Virus record (IMG/VR): IMGVR_UViG_2718217869_000002
Location: 1-43,574 of that record
Length of the DNA: 43,574 nucleotides
Reading direction: 5' to 3' (one strand)
Origin: a virus
Lineage: Duplodnaviria; Heunggongvirae; Uroviricota; Caudoviricetes
Below, one piece after another: positions 33,495 to 43,574 of the stretch. Under the pieces are notes generated by a model. The model saw nothing but the letters and a program-made list of their open reading frames with translations. It was not told the origin of the DNA and did not search any database. Numbering within the stretch: position 1 is the stretch's first letter; every line of letters begins with the position of its first letter. The position numbers were made by a program, and so were the translations under genes.

Positions 33495-34901
33495 ATGGCT
33501 ACTTGGCAAGGATCAAATGGCGGATTGTTGGCTGGTATCGGCGGCGTCAACTCAAACGCTCCGAGCGTAAATGACATCGGCAATACGCTTCAGCTTATCA
33601 GACAGAACAATGATATTGAGCGTTCAGGCGCTAACAATGTTGGTCTGGCTGCTTTGCAAGGCCTTTCAGGTATTGCGGGGGTGTTTCAGCAGGAAAAGCA
33701 GGCTCAGCGGCAGAAAGAATTTCAGCAGGCATACGCTAATGCTTATGCGTCTGGTGATCGCGGTGCTTTGCGTCAGTTGGCTACTCAATATCCAGACCAG
33801 ATTGAATCCGTTCGTAAAGGCATGGGATTCATTGATGAAGAGCAGCGTAATTCTATCGGCACCTTAGCAGCTGGCGCACGCCTTGCTGCCTCGTCTCCAG
33901 AAGCAATGCAATCATGGCTGCAAAACAACGCCAAGGAACTGGCGCGCGTCGGTGTTGACCCTAATAACATTGCTCAGATGTATCAGCAGAACCCTTCAGG
34001 ATTTGGTGAGTTTGTTGATCACCTTGGAATGGCTGCTCTTGGTCCGATTGATTACTTCAATGTTCAGGACAAGATGGCTGGTCGTGAGATTGACCGAGGC
34101 AGACTGGCAGAGACAATCCGCAGCAATCAGGCTGGTGAAGCACTTCAGGCGAGAGGGCAAAACCTTTCCTATCAGTCAGCAATGACTGGGCACAATATCG
34201 CAGCACAACGCTTGGCTCTGGATCAGCAAGAGTTCGGGTTTAAGATGCAGCAAGCGCAGGAAAAGGCTCAGCAGTTGATTAGCGAAGCACCTAAGCTGTC
34301 AGTAAACATGGAAAAAGGCATCGAGATGGCTGTAAACAATGCCACAGCATCATCAAACTCAGCCAATTCTATGAGTGCGCTTGCTCAACAGTTCAGAGCA
34401 GAAAAACCAACGACAGGTTTGTTCGGTAACGCACAGAACATGTTCGCAAAACTTACCGGAAGCGATACGACATTGCGTGATTTGCGCATTCGCCAAAATG
34501 CCCTTGTTAACAGTCAGGTTCTTAAATTCCTACCTCCCGGCCCCGCAACGGATAAAGACGTTGAGATCGTTCGTCAGGGTGCACCAACTGACATGGATAA
34601 CCCTGAGACGGTCGCAAGATGGCTTGATGCGATGGCAAACCTTGAGCGACGAAATGCGCAGTTTAATGAGTTTAAAGCCGAGTGGATGAGCGCGAATGGC
34701 AATCCAGGACAATCGCGCAATGGCGGTCAGATATTGGGGTTGGATGTTAAAAAAGGTGAATCAATGGGGAGTGCCGTTAAGCGGTATATGTCAATGAATA
34801 CTGACGCAGCGCCAGCACAAGATTCGACACCTTCAGGAGAACCACGGAATCAGGTTGGATCATATACCTCAAAATCAGGCATTCAATTTACGGTGGAATG
34901 A
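33495..34901 (+). CDS. Ejection protein, P22 gp20-like
   Basis: 468 aa at gp20 position and size. Confidence 0.7.
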
Positions 34902-36745
34902 TGAAAGTAACTGCAAACGGTAAGACATTTACCTTCCCTGATGGTACGAGCACGGAAGATATTGGCACCGCCATTGATGAGTATTTTGCTGGTCAGGCTG
35001 TTCAGCAACAAACAGTTAATCAGGCCAATAATGCACCAACACGGGAAGAACCATCATTGATGCAACAAGCTGGCGATTGGCTCACTGGTGGTCAAAGTGC
35101 AGGGCAAATTGCAGAACAGGCTGGTCGTGGTCTGGTAAACATACCATTTGACGTATTGCAGGGCGGCGCAAGTCTGATTAATGCAATCAGCCAGGGGCTT
35201 GGTGGCCCCAAGGTTTTGGACGATGTCTATCGTCCAGTCGATCGACCAACAGACCCTTATGCGCAAGCTGGAGAAACAATTGGCGGGTATTTAGTTCCAG
35301 GAGTTGGAACGGCAGGAAGCATGGCTATTGGATCACTGGCAGAGGCCGCAAATCAGAAAGGCGATTTCGCACAAAATGCAGCTAAAAATGCCGGAGTTAA
35401 CCTTGCCGCTCAGGGGGTTCTTTCCGCAGCAGCAAAGGGAATAGGGCGTGGAATAACGGCTATAAAAGGTGATATTGCGCCAGAAGTGGCGAAGAAAATT
35501 GCCACATCAGAATCGATGGGCGTGACACCAATGACATCTGATGTTATCCCGCCGAAAAATGCTTTCACTCGCGGCCTAACTCAGGATGCCGAGGGGGCTT
35601 TGCTCGGGACAGGCTCAAAGCGAGCGGAGCAATATGCAACGCGTAGTAAGCTGGTAAGTAATTATTTTGACCGTTTTGGTGAGTACAACCCTGATGATGT
35701 GGTGAAATCTCTTACCACCACGTTAAGGGGGCGGAAGGATGCCGCTGGCGCTGTTATCAATGACGTCACCAATAAAATGGGTAATGCCGCAGTTGATACC
35801 ACAAATACCATGAATGCTCTGAATACAGCGATCGCAAGACAGGAACGGCTTGGGACGTCTGCCAATCAAAGCCTGCTTACATCCTTGCGTAACCTACGTG
35901 AAGAATTAGCAAACCCTGCAACTGATTTGGATGTTACGTTTGATCTCTTGCGTCAGCACAGAACAGCATTTAGATCTAATGTTCAGGGAGATGCTATGGT
36001 CTTCCCAAACCAGGCAAAAGCAGCTACCAATATGGTAGAGAATGCAATGTCAAAAGATCTTCGTAACGCAGTTGCAAAAAACCTCGGTGCATCAGACGCA
36101 GCAAAATACCTTAAAGCAAATTCCGATTATGCAAACGTTTATAATAAGGTGCTTAATAAAAACATTGCTAACAAGCTCAACAAGGCAAGCAGTGAAGCCA
36201 GTCCTGAACTTATAAATACCGTTGTATTAAGCAGAAAACCATCTGACGTGAAACGAATCTGGAGCGCATTGGATAATAAAGGGAAAGATGCTATGCGTGC
36301 AGCTTATGTCAGCAAAATAGCGGAAAAGGCCGGTGACTCTCCAGCCAAGTTCATCACTGAAGTTAATAAGCTGAAATCTCAGTCAGGCGGTGAAATTTAC
36401 AACACTATTTTTTCTGGAAAGCACATGAAAGAGCTTGATTCTCTTCATGAAGTTCTACAGCAAACAGCAAGGTCAGACACCGCAAATGTAGTAACTCAGA
36501 CGGGGCAATCGCAAGCCAACAGGATAAGGACGATTGGCGCAACTGCGACTCTTGGCGTATCAATGGGGCTTGAGGCTGGTTTCGGTGCAATGATGCGCTT
36601 GTATGAGTCAAAAGCAGCAAGGAATGCTCTCTTACGTTTGGCAAACACCAAAGCAGGAACACCAGCCTATGAAAGAGCGCTAAATAATGCTGCAAATGCG
36701 ATACGCCCTATACTTTCAAGCCAAATTACAGCAGAACAGCAATAA
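34898..36745 (+). CDS. Ejection protein, P22 gp16-like
   Basis: 615 aa at gp16 position and size. Confidence 0.7.
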
Positions 36746-36758
36746 AAATAAGATATAA

Positions 36759-37244
36759 CTATCTGATATTACTGCTACTGTTGCATGTTACCGTGTTTCC
36801 AAATCCTGAATTGCAGTTTGTATATGTGTCAACGCGTGTTGGGTAAGGTTGAGTTATAACAGGCTGGCGCGCTTTTTGCTCGATCGCTTGCATTGTGTTT
36901 ACAGCCTGATAATTCAATAAAGCCTGCTGGAATGCTTGGCTTTGTGCTATTTGTTGGGCTTGTTCTTGGCTTTGTAATTGAACATAAAGATTCTGAAGCT
37001 CAAGTCTTGCCTGTGCGTCACTTATCTTGCCTTCATCGACACCTTGCCCGAGCATCTTTGCAGCAAGGACATACAGCTTAGGTGTTGGTGCTGATGCCAT
37101 GCGTGAGTCGTTCTTCACACTGGCATCAAGGCAATTAGCCATATCGCTAAGCTTTGGATGGCGTTGTTCGCAACTTGCTTGATAGTCACTTACTTTTGCG
37201 CATCCAACCAGCAGAATCGGGATAATTAACAGTGATTTTTTCAT
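36759..37244 (-). CDS. Lipoprotein of unknown function downstream of mnt (sieA position)
   Basis: 161 aa from ATG 37244 with AAGGAG RBS; signal peptide plus lipobox LLVGC; Gln-rich helical middle, Cys-containing C-terminus. Confidence 0.6.
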   Translation of the reverse strand: MKKSLLIIPILLVGCAKVSDYQASCEQRHPKLSDMANCLDASVKNDSRMASAPTPKLYVLAAKMLGQGVDEGKISDAQARLELQNLYVQLQSQEQAQQIAQSQAFQQALLNYQAVNTMQAIEQKARQPVITQPYPTRVDTYTNCNSGFGNTVTCNSSSNIR

Positions 37245-37314
37245 ATGGTTAACTCTCCTTAGTTTTTCACAGGATAGCATGAAGGCAATGCCATTTTAGC
37301 CGGAAACTAGATTT

Positions 37315-37581
37315 CTATGTTTCCTTTTTATTATTGCTATACATGGTCTTAAGCGTTTCAAATACCATTTTCTTAACCATATCAGATTGTTGTTCTGCCA
37401 TACGCTCTGCATCGTCAATGTAAACGGATGCAGAGCTTTGTTTAGCCAATGATTCTTCAATCGCTGCAATTATCTCTGAGTTCAGCGACCTGTTATTCAT
37501 CTTCGCACGCTGTTTAATTTTCGCGTGGAGTTCATGCGGAAGTCTCAAGTGAAACTGCGCCTCGTCGTATTTGCTGTACAT
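37315..37581 (-). CDS. mnt: Mnt-like ribbon-helix-helix repressor
   Basis: 88 aa; FHLRLPHELHAKIKQRAKMNNRSLNSEIIAAIEESL...DDAERMAEQQSDMVKKMVFETLK similar to P22 Mnt; no arc/ant partner present. Confidence 0.75.
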   Translation of the reverse strand: MYSKYDEAQFHLRLPHELHAKIKQRAKMNNRSLNSEIIAAIEESLAKQSSASVYIDDAERMAEQQSDMVKKMVFETLKTMYSNNKKET

Positions 37582-37702
37582 CCTTGATGCCTCACCAGTT
37601 GGGTGGAATGGCATCGTAACCTACTGGATAAATACTCAATAGTACCATTTCTGTATGCAATCACATCATGGTTGCATCATATCATTCGTCTGGAGCAATG
37701 AA

Positions 37703-39514
37703 ATGTCAGATATCACCGCAAACTTAGTGGTAGGGATGCCTTCGCAGCTTTTCACGCTGGCACGCTCATTTAAAGCAAATGCCAACGGTAAAATCTATCT
37801 TGGGCTACCAGATACCGATCCTACAATCCCAGCGAACCAAATCCCTGTTTATATTGAAAGTGAAACTGGAGATCTGATTCCAACTGCTCAGCCGATAGTC
37901 ATTAACGCGGGTGGCTATCCTGTTTACAACGGGCAGATATCAAAGTTCGTTACTGTGCAGAATTACAGTATGACTGTTTATGACGCCTATGGCTCTCAGC
38001 AGTTCTACTTCCCTGACATTGCAAAATACGACCCAGATCAGTTAAGGCAACAGCTTGAGAGTAGTTCTGGTGCTGACATTGTAATGACTGGATCAGCTCC
38101 ATTCATTGTTAGAAGTGTTGGCGACATTCTAAAAGACATTCCTACCAATAAATATTTTGGTGCGAAATGTGATGGTGTAACTGATGATACAGTAGCGAAT
38201 CAAACTGCTCTTGATTGGTCTGCTGATAACAAAAGAACTGTTCTTTTTGTTGGCAAGTCATGTACATCATCCAGGTTGGTTTTAAAAAGCGGAGCGAGGA
38301 TGGAGAACATAGGTTCAATAGCTCCTAAAAATTTCACTGACACAGTTGTTATAGAAATAAAGGATGATTCATGGAGGACTCCATATAATGACGGGATAAC
38401 AGCAATTCAGACTGGAAATCGGGTTCTTCTGAATAATATTAACATAGAACCTGACGAAGTGATAAATGCTGTTGGTATTTATGGAACTGATGGAGTTGGT
38501 CCTGTAATTAATAATGCCAGAATATTTAACATGAGAAATGGAGGTGTTGATATTGAAAAGGGATATGAATGGAAATTTTCAAACTTGTCTATTGTGGCTC
38601 CTTTCGATCAGTCAATAGACTCTACAGCACCAGGAATTCTCCATAGAACAAGTGATAGCATGTATCACAATACAACAGTTACAGGTTACACAACTGGCAT
38701 GAGGATCACGTCTGGTGCTAATGATGTAACAAATACCCATGTATGGGGTCTTGCAGGAAGCAGAACAACCAGGGTAATGCTTATTGGATTAGACGTGTCA
38801 GGGAGCGCTAACAACATTACAAACTTCTATAGCGACTCACCACACAAGAAAGATTCAACACCTGCTAGCGTTACTAACGGTGGGATTGCATTTAATATCT
38901 CAGGATTCAACAACACGTTTAACGGATGCCGAGCATTGTTTCATCATGATGATGGAACCAAGTATGGAAAGATTTTTAATATTACAGGAACTGAGAATAC
39001 ATTCTTGTCATCTATGTGCTCAGATTTATCAGGAGTTGAGGATGCAGGTATCTTTGTTTTCTCTGGTTCCGGGACTCCAGTAAATAACTATGTGTATGGT
39101 GGTAATATTCAGAGTCTGTATGTTTTCCCTCAGTCTGTTGGATTCAACCCTACAATAAATGCTCCGTGTACCTATACTTCACAAATATACAGGCATGAAT
39201 TGACTCAGCGCAACGTATCAGGAAGACTAACCATTTCTTGTAATATCACAAGTAATGTTGGTTCTGGTGCTTTTTCTATAACCCTTCCGTCATATTTAAG
39301 CTCGTTTAAAGGTGATTGCATGGGTTCTATACTTACTATATTAAATAGTGCAATAAGGACTGACACTAATTTATTGGAGGTAAATGGTTACATTACAGGA
39401 GGTAAAATTTTCTTCCGCAGAATCTTTAGGTCAGGCTCACCTGTTGATGTTCAGATAACAGATCTGATAACAGGTAATGCAACAATAGACTTAAGCTTTT
39501 CTTGTTGTTTATGA
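37703..39514 (+). CDS. Tailspike protein (P22-type head-binding N-domain, divergent beta-helix receptor-binding domain)
   Basis: N-terminus [52 protein letters not shown] matches P22 gp9 residues 1-110; remainder unrelated with beta-helix-like repeats. Confidence 0.85.
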
Positions 39515-39566: not shown

Positions 39567-40994
39567 TCATTTACATGGATTTATTCCGTAATATATTACA
39601 ATATCATCTTTATATCTGAATATTGAGTAATATCTTGATGAAATCAATGGCTCTGATTTGATGCCACAAACCATGCGCAACATGCCGCTTTTAACAACGT
39701 TATTATAAAGTGCAACATTTTTTATGTTGTACTGTTGCATTATAGAAATTGATATCCATGGCACAGCCGGGCTATATATCTGCCTAATAAATTTGTTAGC
39801 AGACAGTATCTTCCCGGTTATCCGCGAATTATATATGTCTCCGTAAGCGTAAACATATCCCTTGAAATCAAGTTTAGATAGATCATTAGCTGCAAGTGAA
39901 ATAACAAATTCCTCATACTTTCTTTGCTCTTTTATGGCATTCGAAAATAGAAAAGAAGTAGATAAGGAGAAAAACAAAATAACAGATACGAATGCAGTGT
40001 AAGTATTTTTATTAAACGCCTTATAAAATGAATAAATGAACAATGCTATAGAAGCAGAAAGGCCAGACAATACCCTAACGTCTGTTATACCCTCCCTTAA
40101 AAGAAATGCAGGCCCAGTCATGGAAAGTAAAATTGCAACTGGGGATAAAGTAATAAATAAAATATTTACCACACCTTCATTTCTTGACTTTATGACATAC
40201 GTCAAATAACAAAATAAAAAACACGCGGCACCTAAAATAACTATAAATTCATATAACTTGCCTACCAAGCCAAAATAAAAGTATACCTTTTCTAGGGATG
40301 ACATGAAAGATTTAATAATATCGGATGGGTCGATGTATGACGCCCTTCCTGAATTCATCTTGAAAAAATAACTTATCAATATGAAGTATAATAAATATGA
40401 TGATAAAAAAACTAAAAGAGATTTTATGTTTGATATTTTTGCATATTTATAAACTGCGTTACCTGCAACTAATGTTATAAATATGTTGGCGCAAGGCTGA
40501 TACAGGCAAAGAGATGATACTAGAAGTATCACTGAAAAAACTATCGATACTTTTCTTTTTTCGTCATATATAAAAAAAGATAAAACACAAAGCGCTGTAG
40601 CCAATACCATAGTGAACGAGTCAAACTGATATGCAGCGTTCTGAATGAAAAATGGAGTTACAAAGATAGATGTCAAGAATAAAGAAAAAACGAATTTATT
40701 GTTTTCTTGAGATAATTTATCTGAAACATACCAAATTACAGCAGATGCAACTATCACGCCTGTTAGTAATGGCATAGGTGCTGTATTAGGAAGCATTTTA
40801 AAGTTCAAAGAGAATATATGCATTAGGAAATCGGAAAGAGGTCTTCCCAAAACCCCCCACCCATCAAAAGAAAACAATGATCTATCTAAGTCATCCCTGT
40901 AAAGAACATCCGCGGATATTATTGGATAGAAAAATATCGCAATTAAAAACAATGGGATGTAAAAATATTTAGAATTAAACATTCCTATTTTCAC
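39567..40994 (-). CDS. Serotype-specific O-antigen glucosyltransferase (GtrC-type polytopic membrane protein)
   Basis: 475 aa, many TM segments, very AT-rich coding sequence; third gene of gtrA-gtrB-gtr(type) cluster. Confidence 0.7.
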
Positions 40995-41904
40995 CTTTCT
41001 TTAGTATGTACTTTGGTCTTTTTTTGGTTTCTATGTATATGCGTCCAATGTATTCACCAAGGACACCAATCCCAATCAATTGAATGCCGCCAAGGAAAAG
41101 TATGGAAACCAACAGTGACGGGTATCCAGGAACACTATTACCGAAAAGAAGCTTATCTAAAATCATCCACGCGCCATAAATGAATGACAGGCTGGCGACA
41201 GCAAGTCCGATGTATGTCCACATGCGCAATGGAAAAGTTGAGAAACTGGTGATTCCTTCAAGCGCGAGATTCCACAGCTTCCAGCCATTGAACTTGCTGT
41301 CACCAGCTATGCGTTCTGCGCGAGCATACTCGACGACGTCAGTCTTTCCACCAACCCAGCTAAGTATGCCTTTCATAAACAGGTTGCGTTCAGGCATTGA
41401 TTTAATGTTCTCAACCACTTCACGCGACATAAGCCGAAAGTCTCCGACGTTTTCCTCAATCTTCGGATTGCTTATTTTATTGTGGAGCTTATAGAACCAC
41501 TCAGCCGTTTTTCGCTTCAGTCTGCCATCCGTTGAGCGGTCAGATCGTTTAGCAAGCACCATATCAGCGCCTGCCTGCCATTTTTCAATCAGTTGAGGTA
41601 TTACCTCAATCGGGTCTTGCAGGTCAACATCAATAGGAATAACAGCATCGCCTGTTGCATGGTCTAACCCTGCAAACAATGCTGGTTCTTTACCAAAGTT
41701 GCGCGTAAATGACAGCGGAACAACTAGCGGATCAGAAACAGCCAGAGCGTAAATTATTGACTCTGTAGAGTCTTTGCTGCCGTCATTTATGAAAACAATT
41801 TCCACCTCATATGGCTTCAACTCTTCGAGTTCACGTACCGTTTTATAAAAAATTGGTATCGCTTCTTCTTCATTGAAGACAGGAACTACAAGAGATATCT
41901 TCAT
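40975..41904 (-). CDS. gtrB: Bactoprenol glucosyltransferase GtrB (GT2 family)
   Basis: 309 aa; N-terminal GT2 motifs ([21 protein letters not shown]) and two C-terminal TM helices. Confidence 0.85.
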
Positions 41905-42263
41905 TTCGCATCCCTAAAGACAATGAACTTTGAATATACGAAACCGCACACCAGGCTGATGGCGGAGAAAGTGATAAGGGTTAGCATCGGGGGAAGTGCG
42001 CATCTATCAGCAGCCCATCCAACAGTTGCACTCAGTGTTCCCATGAACCCGACATATAACATGTAGCGCATCGTTGTAGTCGATGCTTTGAATGTGAATT
42101 TTGCATTCGCGAAGAAGCTAAAGCTCACAGCCACAACGAAACCTGCGAAGTTTGCAAGAGCCTGGTTTGTATGCGCTGCATAGATACAAACACCAAAAAC
42201 CACCCAGTGTATAAGTGTGTTCAGCACACCAATCGAGGTGTACTTTGCAAATAGCTTTAACAT
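41901..42263 (-). CDS. gtrA: GtrA flippase-like small membrane protein
   Basis: 120 aa, four TM helices, immediately upstream of gtrB. Confidence 0.8.
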
Positions 42264-42416: not shown

Positions 42417-43574
42417 TCACTCCACCTTTTCATCAAGCCAATCCGCCCACCACTGCATCATTTCTCTGCGCTTATCGAGATACTGTGCATGGTTGTAAAT
42501 CCCGCGCACAGATCCGCCGTTGGCATGTGCCAGTTGCACTTCAATAGCGTCAGCAGGCCATTCGTGCTCGTTCATAATTGTGCTGAATTCATGCCTGAAT
42601 CCGTGACCGCTTTCCAGACCCTCATAGCCGATTTGTTTGATCACAAGCAATACCGCGTTCTCGCAGATTGGCTTCTTCTTATCGTTGCGCCCGGCAAAAA
42701 CAAACTCTGATACTGGTTTAGTGATGGAGCTTAGCGTAGTGAGAAGTTCATCCACCTGGTCTGACATAGGAACAACATGAATCTTGCGGCCCTTCATCAC
42801 ACTGGCGTCGATAGTGATAATCCTGTTTTCAAAATCGACGTTCTTCCATTGCATGGAACGAAGCTCTTTCGTTCTTAGGGCTGTGTAGCGTAAAACTTTG
42901 GTCGCAATGAGCGATACGATGCTTCCTGAAAATGTTGCAAGTGCTTTGTTAAATGCCGGGATCTGGTCTGCAGGAAGAAACGGGAAGTTCTTCTTGCGGT
43001 ATCCCTTCATGGCGTCAGCAAGGTCAGGTGCCGGGTTATATTTAGCCCTTCCGGTGACAATAGCGTAACGGAAAACCTCGCCGCATCTTCTGCGTGCTTT
43101 GTTTGCTCGCTCCATTGCGCCGCGATCTTCAAATCTGCGGATTACTTCCAACAGTTGCATCGGCTCAATATCCTGAATTTCAAGGCCGCCGATGATGGGT
43201 AAAATGTCGTCATCAAACATTTTTGCAAGTTCATTTGCATAGCCTACTGACCAGACTTGCTTCTTGTGCTCGTACCATTCCTTGTAAATGGCGCTAAAGG
43301 AGTTGTTGTTAGACGAAGCCTTTTTCGCTTTTACCGGATCGATTCCAACCGAGATGTCTTTCCTCGCAGTCCATGCTTTATCCCTTGCCTCCTGCAAAGT
43401 CATAAGCGGATATTTTCCTACGGTCAGTATTTTTTCCTTACCGTCAATCTTGTAGCGAAGCTGCCATACCTTTTTCCCGGATACAGGGACATAAAGGTAC
43501 AGGCCATTACCATCGAGAAGGCGGTATGGTTTTTCTTTCGGCTTTGCTGCTTCAATCTGCTTAACGGTGAGCAT
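42417..43574 (-). CDS. intS: Tyrosine integrase (IntS/CPS-53 type)
   Basis: 385 aa; C-terminal catalytic R..H..R..Y region (HGFRHEF..., ...LAHANG...RGIYNHAQY); start codon at window end, transcribed toward gtrA. Confidence 0.9.
   Translation of the reverse strand: MLTVKQIEAAKPKEKPYRLLDGNGLYLYVPVSGKKVWQLRYKIDGKEKILTVGKYPLMTLQEARDKAWTARKDISVGIDPVKAKKASSNNNSFSAIYKEWYEHKKQVWSVGYANELAKMFDDDILPIIGGLEIQDIEPMQLLEVIRRFEDRGAMERANKARRRCGEVFRYAIVTGRAKYNPAPDLADAMKGYRKKNFPFLPADQIPAFNKALATFSGSIVSLIATKVLRYTALRTKELRSMQWKNVDFENRIITIDASVMKGRKIHVVPMSDQVDELLTTLSSITKPVSEFVFAGRNDKKKPICENAVLLVIKQIGYEGLESGHGFRHEFSTIMNEHEWPADAIEVQLAHANGGSVRGIYNHAQYLDKRREMMQWWADWLDEKVE

Follow-up and report, generated by a model that had tools for sequence, protein, structure and literature searches.

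An orphan mnt gene and a putative lysogenic-conversion lipoprotein in the sieA slot of a P22-like Escherichia coli prophage

Introduction

Exclusion at the level of entry is understood in P22-like phages for SieA only, and most of these phages lack sieA, which is carried by just 22 of 66 of them (PMC10883804). Which gene takes the sieA slot in a phage of this group, and what does an Mnt repressor control where arc and ant are missing? Both questions are raised by positions 36759–37581 of the viral record IMGVR_UViG_2718217869_000002, here called the window (the whole stretch analyzed, 43,574 nucleotides), whose source is a P22-like (Lederbergvirus) Escherichia coli prophage. There, a lipoprotein gene and an orphan mnt gene lie between the genes for a gp16-type ejection protein and the tailspike:

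34898–36745, plus strand: gp16-type ejection protein, left flank, convergent with the lipoprotein gene
36759–37244, minus strand: lipoprotein coding sequence, 161 amino acids (aa), PHROG 6067; characterized by an AlphaFold2 (AF2) model and by the ratio of nonsynonymous to synonymous substitution rates (dN/dS)
37315–37581, minus strand: mnt orthologue, 88 aa, with a ribbon-helix-helix N-domain and an Mnt tetramerisation domain
37582–37702: mnt-tailspike intergenic region, 121 bp, read as an arc-ant deletion scar
37703–39514, plus strand: tailspike, right flank

We show that the lipoprotein gene is a self-contained mosaic cassette in the sieA slot of the hypervariable 'ant moron', the region so named by Villafane, Casjens and colleagues, with ten types in sixteen genomes (PMC2629481), and that a closely related copy is transcribed in lysogens independently of the late genes. 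The reading that we tentatively prefer takes the lipoprotein as a lysogenic-conversion factor in the lysogen envelope, preferably as a stand-in for SieA, and Mnt as the leftover of an arc-ant deletion that most likely controls just the leftward transcript.

Results

The lipoprotein gene is a mosaic cassette

A preliminary description of this locus had placed an mnt-like gene and a 161-aa lipoprotein gene downstream of it within 36759–37581, at the position of P22 sieA. Both placements stand: the open reading frames (ORFs) are at 36759–37244 and 37315–37581 on the minus strand, P22 sieA occupies the same slot, convergent with gene 16, and RefSeq agrees with both ORFs. Several complete E. coli genomes share the 1-kb stretch with the two genes at 100% identity and E. 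coli O26:H11 strain 11368 at 98.5%, and in this strain RefSeq has the same products, a 'hypothetical protein' of 161 aa and an 'Arc family DNA-binding protein' of 88 aa. Upstream starts that would give a 173-aa lipoprotein (37280) or a 99-aa Mnt (37614) are unlikely. The positions of the Shine-Dalgarno (SD) sequences, together with RefSeq and the alignment to P22, favor 37244 and 37581.

In all 89 loci that were fetched, as in the window (∼90 loci together), the lipoprotein gene lies between gp16 and mnt or tailspike of a P22-like element. These loci come from at least eight enterobacterial genera (Escherichia, Salmonella, Proteus, Providencia, Tatumella, Serratia, Yersinia, and others). Mnt alone is the commonest companion; other loci have full ant-arc-mnt, a partial ant, orf59a, other small genes or none, and in Yersinia ruckeri the order is tailspike, lipoprotein, gp16, without further genes. 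SieA of type A or B was absent from all ∼90 loci (tblastn with P22 SieA and HS1 SieA). The pairing of Mnt and lipoprotein in the preliminary description was correct for the window, where the two are co-directional neighbors, but the genes are not tied to each other: the lipoprotein gene was also found with full immI, with other Mnt types and without any Mnt.

When relatives with different neighbors were compared by blastn, the breakpoints delimited the following cassette:

36760–37283: mosaic cassette with the lipoprotein gene

Homology starts at the stop codon (36760), where the match to VSe13 starts too, and the upstream breakpoints fall at 37251, 37261, 37266, 37275 or 37283, 7–39 bp upstream of the ATG. 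One lipoprotein allele (at least 93% identical) recurs next to three or more gp16 types that are very different, and with four or more Mnt types, which argues for an independently assorting cassette. As in other morons, the gene is present or absent among otherwise syntenic relatives, with discrete boundaries. It was detected in 185 of 5,426 complete E. coli genomes (∼3%), compared with 21 that have HS1-type SieA, and its carriers include O26:H11 and the Crohn's-associated strain LF82. The gene is also retained in a truncated Serratia marcescens prophage, and the gp16-tailspike hot-spot of relatives holds other secreted or lipoprotein genes as well.

Two arrangements around the cassette deserve mention in their own right. 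A S. marcescens remnant (loci L097/L098), which recurs in many assemblies of that species, consists of tailspike, a Bro-N antirepressor-like gene, the lipoprotein gene and a partial gp16, without other virion genes on the flank shown. In loci L013, L014, L015, L018, L066 and L090 a secreted 104-aa protein (MKRIAILLILFFSTIVCAKQ...) with no Pfam match is encoded directly upstream and co-directionally; the two genes there form an envelope operon in which the lipoprotein gene comes second and has a different ribosome-binding site.

Transcription of the lipoprotein gene

Two signals were found upstream of the lipoprotein ATG:

37253–37260, minus strand: strong SD sequence AAGGAGAG, 8 nt upstream of the ATG
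37271–37279, minus strand: candidate extended −10 promoter TGCTATCCT, with a predicted transcription start near 37264

Some relatives have a different sequence upstream of the gene, and the SD is kept in most upstream contexts. A block, TGnTATCCT-G(T/C)G(A/C)AAAACTAAGGAGAG, is common to several unrelated contexts and reads as an extended −10 plus SD, and TGnTAT-type motifs occupy the same place in the 47–60%-identical homologues L007, L009 and L010. Between mnt and the lipoprotein gene there is no canonical terminator; a hairpin over the mnt stop codon lacks a U-tract. Read-through from Pmnt into the lipoprotein gene is therefore possible, and we propose such read-through, an extended −10 promoter belonging to the gene, or both, as the source of its transcription in the window.

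Expression was available for GALLYPH_13, a 97%-identical copy in prophage Gally of E. coli LF82 (Misson et al., 2023; PMC9928086), as log2(fpkm+5), from fragments per kilobase per million in RNA-seq (S1 Table of that paper). GALLYPH_13 reached 6.3/6.0 in stationary lysogeny broth (LB), 7.9–8.2 in Dulbecco's modified Eagle medium (DMEM), and 10.3 at 1 h and 8.5–8.7 at 6 h in macrophages. The adjacent gp16 homologue, GALLYPH_12, stayed at 3.6–4.2 in all conditions, and the Gally C2 repressor ranged from 8.9 to 12. The Gally copy is thus transcribed in lysogens independently of the late genes.

The same values bear on a different explanation, namely that the lipoprotein is a host-fitness factor of lysogenic conversion, unrelated to phages and Bor-like, which alters how the cell tolerates stress or interacts with its host and is induced under host-like conditions. 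Relative to LB, the Gally copy is ∼4-fold higher in DMEM and ∼16-fold higher after 1 h in macrophages (PMC9928086), with a log2 fold change of 2.55 (q = 4.7e-27) at 6 h; distant homologues are chromosomal and in non-phage contexts; and both the retention in a decayed prophage and the other secreted and lipoprotein genes of the hot-spot agree with it. On the other hand, deletion of the whole of Gally left the macrophage survival of LF82 unchanged, as published, the protein shows no similarity to Bor/Iss or to any virulence family, and its strict confinement between gp16 and tailspike, with no SieA at any such locus, fits a phage-related role better. We consider this host-fitness role possible, though less probable than not.

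Far less probable, in our judgement, is a service to the phage's own lytic cycle, in which the lipoprotein, like T5 Llp, would limit the loss of progeny on debris, or would modulate lysis or the supply of tailspike. T5 Llp is one lipoprotein with both exclusion and progeny-protection roles and thus a precedent for such a double role. The gene lies inside the late region, and antisense transcription could affect tailspike read-through, an idea raised for the P22 ant moron (PMC2629481). Yet the gene runs antisense to the late operon, it is expressed with the late genes silent, most P22-like phages do without it, and it persists in a remnant without virion genes.

A second lipoprotein gene was noted in Gally. 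GALLYPH_14 (L002, 2447–2866), also seen in 12 viral loci (e.g., L089), encodes an unrelated 139-aa predicted lipoprotein (MKRIIGVVAGAILLSGC...) with no Pfam match. It is flanked by the PHROG 6067 gene and mnt, has the opposite orientation, and is missing from the window. In LF82 it is expressed even more strongly (log2 up to 11 in macrophages), and read-through from it may explain the late-operon-independent tailspike transcription in Gally.

The lipoprotein and its family

The lipoprotein begins with MKKSLLIIPILLVGC, and its signal peptide ends in a lipobox of the signal peptidase II pattern [LVI][ASTVI][GAS]C (lipobox LVGC, Cys15; predicted lipidation). All of 40 homologues have Cys15, as do at least 90% of a set of 117; Cys25 and Cys38 do not vary among homologues, and the C-terminal pair Cys144/Cys154 is invariant or nearly so. 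Since residue +2 is Ala, not Asp, the predicted location is the periplasm, with an anchor in the outer membrane (OM).

In the alignment, the N-terminal 75 residues are very conserved, the Gln-rich helix is more variable, and the C-terminal Cys-x9-Cys hairpin occurs in ∼4 sequence variants that cross genus boundaries. A confident AF2 model, built from a deeper alignment (predicted local distance difference test score, pLDDT, of 87), comprises a four-helix bundle (helices 18–28, 32–45, 47–51 and 53–70) that holds the conserved Cys25/Cys38, a single long helix of ∼50 residues (76–125), and a β-hairpin (139–146/152–159) with Cys144/Cys154. Against close alleles, dN/dS was 0.04–0.13 (dS up to 0.57), which argues for a selected protein-coding gene and not a chance ORF.

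Nearly all members of the family stop 2–3 residues past the last Cys (C-x-[ST]-[YR]-COOH), and the C-terminus in the window (36762–36830) is longer, ending ...CNSSSNIR. Recognition might involve this free, conserved C-terminus on its disulfide-stapled hairpin. In some homologues the long helix is shorter by exactly 7 residues, consistent with a coiled coil.

The protein matches PHROG 6067, of 'unknown function', over its full length (2.1e-109, residues 1–161 vs. profile 1–161 of 161), and it has no Pfam, NCBIfam or PADLOC family. At most signal-peptide noise was obtained when ten distant relatives were scanned against these three collections, PDB sequence profiles gave no match beyond the signal peptide, and Foldseek with a first, weaker model gave no hit at E < 0.1 in PDB or BFVD. 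A literature search for phrog_6067, WP_000749290 or the lipoprotein itself, ant-moron papers included, found nothing. The lipobox, Gln-rich helical middle and Cys-containing tail that the preliminary description had seen were borne out by the alignments and the model, and its remark that the protein belonged to no nameable family holds, as Pfam, NCBIfam and PADLOC are empty. An identity with hkcB, hkcC or orf59a was considered and rejected: tblastn gives the lipoprotein in just five phage records.

A database search returned 94 homologue clusters, and every named one is from Enterobacterales (Escherichia, Citrobacter, Serratia, Cronobacter, Klebsiella aerogenes, Pectobacterium, Yersinia, Morganella, Providencia and Tatumella). 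When 1.8 billion representatives were searched with a profile, 248 relatives came up, most of them of 125–135 aa with the same head and the C-terminal motif TTNCxxxGNxxxCxx[YR], and no Pfam or NCBIfam family was found in this set; a profile search through a word index gave 9 unnamed metagenomic proteins, and one distant homologue used as query retrieved no protein but itself. Three distant members were placed in their loci:

L091, 6001–6384: distant family member
L095, 6001–6405: distant family member
L100, 6001–6426: distant family member

Two of these three loci share a DUF3108-glmU neighborhood near dapD/dapE, with glmS also on one contig, and the remaining one adjoins uvrC/pgsA/bio genes. 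Judged by its homologues, the phage gene looks recruited from a wider, unstudied family of bacterial lipoproteins.

Mnt, a candidate operator and the deletion scar

The preliminary description had called the second gene an Mnt-like repressor without arc and ant, and both parts of that claim were confirmed. The window protein has the two Pfam domains of Mnt (Arc, PF03869, 8.4e-15, residues 7–49; Repressor_Mnt, PF11423, 4e-12, residues 57–81) and is 47% identical to P22 Mnt over 76 aa, and P22 Arc, Ant and SieA queries gave no tblastn match in the whole window. Among mnt alleles dN/dS is mostly <0.3, indicating purifying selection. The isolated phages Sf101 and IME10 have the same mnt and operator, and their slot contains no gene but mnt.

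The 121-bp mnt-tailspike spacer is composite. Its left ∼85 bp align with the Pmnt/Pant/operator region of P22 and its right ∼35 bp with the P22 gene 9 leader, and judged by this alignment it is the scar of an arc-ant deletion. A search for an operator in this region (37582–37702) had been proposed, and a candidate dyad was found there, together with remains of a promoter:

37639–37659: candidate Mnt operator ATAGTACCATTTCTGTATGCA, dyad TACC-N5-GGTA centered at 37649, in the register of P22 Omnt
37613–37639, minus strand: Pmnt-homologous hexamers TTGAGT (37639–37634) and TACGAT (37618–37613), aligned to annotated P22 promoters

The operator-like sequence occurs once in the window. Most relatives with the window Mnt type, Sf101 included, have TACC-N5-GGTA at this site. 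Loci with a P22-like Mnt (76% identical, strand residues Q-F-N-L-R) have GACCAC-G-GTGGTC at the same place; P22 Omnt itself is GGTCCAC-G-GTGGACC. Operator and Mnt recognition strand thus co-vary across loci, which argues that the site is real. In this prophage lineage, T in place of G at 37652, in the right half-site, might weaken Mnt binding. An inverted repeat at 37655–37677 was rejected as the operator: its right arm lies in sequence derived from the gene 9 leader, and it is not kept with this Mnt type (L023, L031, VSe13).

A Pmnt-like −35 (TTGAGx) and −10 (TAAGAT or TACGAT) remain in the orphan-Mnt groups. The rightward Pant equivalents are poor in both groups, ATGGCA-15-TAAATA in the window and TCGGCA-17-TGCATC in the P22-type group. 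This bears on the proposal that Mnt still represses a rightward, Pant-derived promoter that reads into tailspike, and so keeps tailspike off in lysogens. The operator keeps the ancestral Pant/Omnt register and precedes the tailspike ATG by 44 bp, and tailspike RNA of Gally rises ∼20-fold in macrophages when other late genes do not. Apart from the poor hexamers, the proposal must face the fact that mnt and tailspike of Gally rise together, and that read-through from the strongly expressed, rightward GALLYPH_14 can explain the rise; we regard repression of tailspike as unlikely. In published work LF82 mnt was up 40-fold in macrophages, and its deletion had no survival phenotype.

In P22, AAAATTCACCGTAGCCA(C/T)GCT occurs twice as a direct repeat in the ant-gene 9 spacer (L005, 4995–5204), ahead of gene 9. 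The window tailspike leader matches just the distal part of the second AAAATTCACCGTAGCCA copy.

Other genes of the region

Outside the gp16-tailspike interval, the following genes were placed:

33495–34901: gp20, left of gp16
39567–42263, minus strand: gtrABC, between tailspike and integrase
42417–43574: integrase, right of gtrABC

The gtrABC genes form an intact O-antigen glucosylation cluster (GtrII-type GtrC, GtrB and GtrA) of very low GC content (30–34%), and an adsorption-level block is therefore already present in the prophage. A scan of 36000–38200 against Rfam returned no RNA family.

Discussion

The discrete cassette, the lack of co-occurrence with SieA types A and B, the retention in a decayed Serratia prophage and the transcription in Gally support an envelope function that acts in the lysogen. 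As we picture it, the lipoprotein would act there as a lysogenic-conversion factor and block, from the periplasmic side of the OM, the trans-envelope DNA delivery of incoming phages, and so would take the place of SieA functionally. Contact would be made through the C-terminal hairpin, which is disulfide-stapled and more variable, on a scaffold formed by the conserved helical head. The arc-ant deletion would have left mnt intact, with the operator at its ancestral position and the Pant hexamers decayed; because the operator is kept and Pant is decayed, Mnt most likely controls just the leftward mnt(-lipoprotein) transcript. A further possible target of its repression is ant of incoming relatives that have the same operator.

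Superinfection exclusion through such a periplasmic-side block of DNA delivery is speculative, with roughly one chance in three, and a phage-unrelated role in host fitness has about the same probability in view of the chromosomal relatives and of how strongly DMEM and macrophages induce the Gally copy. A bolder form of the exclusion idea, which we hold to be possible rather than probable, makes PHROG 6067 a new family of OM-anchored periplasmic exclusion proteins and a common alternative to SieA in E. coli (185 vs. 21 genomes), with the orphan Mnt guarding in trans against ant-carrying relatives. The protein would then block the ejection-protein conduit of P22-like phages, or a secondary OM receptor, from the periplasm, and its origin would lie in recruitment from a proteobacterial family of lipoproteins that is widespread and unstudied.

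Several observations weigh against the lipoprotein as a stand-in for SieA. The preliminary description had suggested superinfection exclusion or receptor masking, but no exclusion, adsorption or injection phenotype is on record for any member of the family, and SieA, Cor, Llp, Bor and the PADLOC models show no sequence or fold similarity to it. Among close alleles there is no sign of diversifying selection. The induction of the Gally copy in DMEM and macrophages fits exclusion no better than it fits a role in the host environment. Of 50,697 phage genomes searched by tblastn, just five have the family (Gally, vB_EcoP-720R6, VSe13, MS2 LVA and Brookers); those that are classified or were examined are P22-like (MS2 LVA has no annotation), and distant family members as queries returned the same five. 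Distant members (17–30% identical) are stand-alone chromosomal genes of metagenomic proteobacteria. Their chromosomal location and the five phage carriers suggest that the ancestral function was probably not anti-phage.

The evidence for expression and regulation has its own weak points. In LB, GALLYPH_13 is at 4.5 times the prophage median, just under the 5-fold moron cut-off of the authors, who for this reason called Gally 'devoid of morons' (PMC9928086). Upstream of its gene, the Gally sequence differs from that of the window beyond −17, so we infer expression in the window from Gally. T replaces G at 37652 in the window and in four other loci (TACC-N5-TGTA), and the spacer of the Pmnt-like hexamers in the window is just 15 nt.

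Should both genes then be seen as decaying remnants without present function? Decay was raised for the mnt-like gene of phage L (PMC8022706), and the half-site substitution in the window operator would agree with it. Purifying selection acts on both genes, however, their ORFs are intact in hundreds of genomes and in isolated phages, and the lipoprotein orthologue is regulated and expressed, so that we take decay to be the least probable of the explanations considered here, and a very remote one.

A lysogen-expressed envelope lipoprotein in the slot of sieA is a cheap and concrete candidate for a second exclusion mechanism in P22-like phages. If it is true that it alters the envelope for the benefit of the host, it would be relevant to pathogen biology, given the strong induction in macrophages. 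Either role would give a function to a protein family without a Pfam entry. The orphan Mnt with its co-varying operator offers a natural series for repressor-operator specificity and is not a new phenomenon.

Comparison with known systems

The lipoprotein resembles P22 SieA in its slot, directly after and convergent with gene 16 and antisense to the late operon, in its size (161 vs. 164 aa), in its predicted envelope location and, judged by the Gally copy, in its expression from the prophage. In contrast, SieA (types A, B, and C; Leavitt et al., 2024, PMC10883804) spans the inner membrane several times and has an FxRYPxEAxxFNK motif on the cytoplasmic side, whereas the lipoprotein has a cleavable lipoprotein signal only, lacks that motif and shows no detectable similarity to SieA.

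The best functional analogy is provided by Cor (phi80/N15/HK022) and Llp (T5), small phage OM lipoproteins with disulfides that act at the periplasmic face. There is no homology: the matches to PHROG Cor (E = 0.19) and to Llp of PDB 8a60 (E = 0.37) are weak and cover the signal peptide only, as the preliminary description had anticipated in proposing an analogy of role and not of sequence, and our protein is twice the size, with a helical fold. With lambda Bor/Iss it shares the character of a prophage lipoprotein moron, with a predicted OM location and, judged by the Gally copy, expression in lysogens; it differs in size and fold and has no Pfam Lambda_Bor match at E up to 1.

The window Mnt is like P22 Mnt in both Pfam domains, in position and orientation, and in a candidate dyad operator in the same register, and differs in that the window has no ant or arc to control. 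Its DNA-contacting β-strand reads Q-F-H-L-R (H-F-N-F-R in P22 Mnt), and the difference in operator half-site (TACC vs. GTCCAC) matches these differing residues.

An ant-moron type with mnt plus one unknown gene has been described in ST64T, ST104, and Para1 (Villafane et al., 2008, PMC2629481), and for the mnt-like gene of phage L both a remnant and a new function were discussed (Zaworski et al., 2020, PMC8022706). Our locus shares with these mnt-only ant morons (ST64T, ST104, Para1, L) the gene 16-tailspike slot, mnt with one gene of unknown function, the absence of arc and ant, and the high genetic flux of the ant moron; it differs in its companion, the PHROG 6067 lipoprotein gene, which tblastn did not find in ST64T, ST104, Para1 or L. 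The orphan Mnt is thus an already known arrangement, the published mnt-only type of ant moron (ST64T, ST104, L), and the lipoprotein is an uncharacterized member of a familiar class, the envelope morons of prophages.

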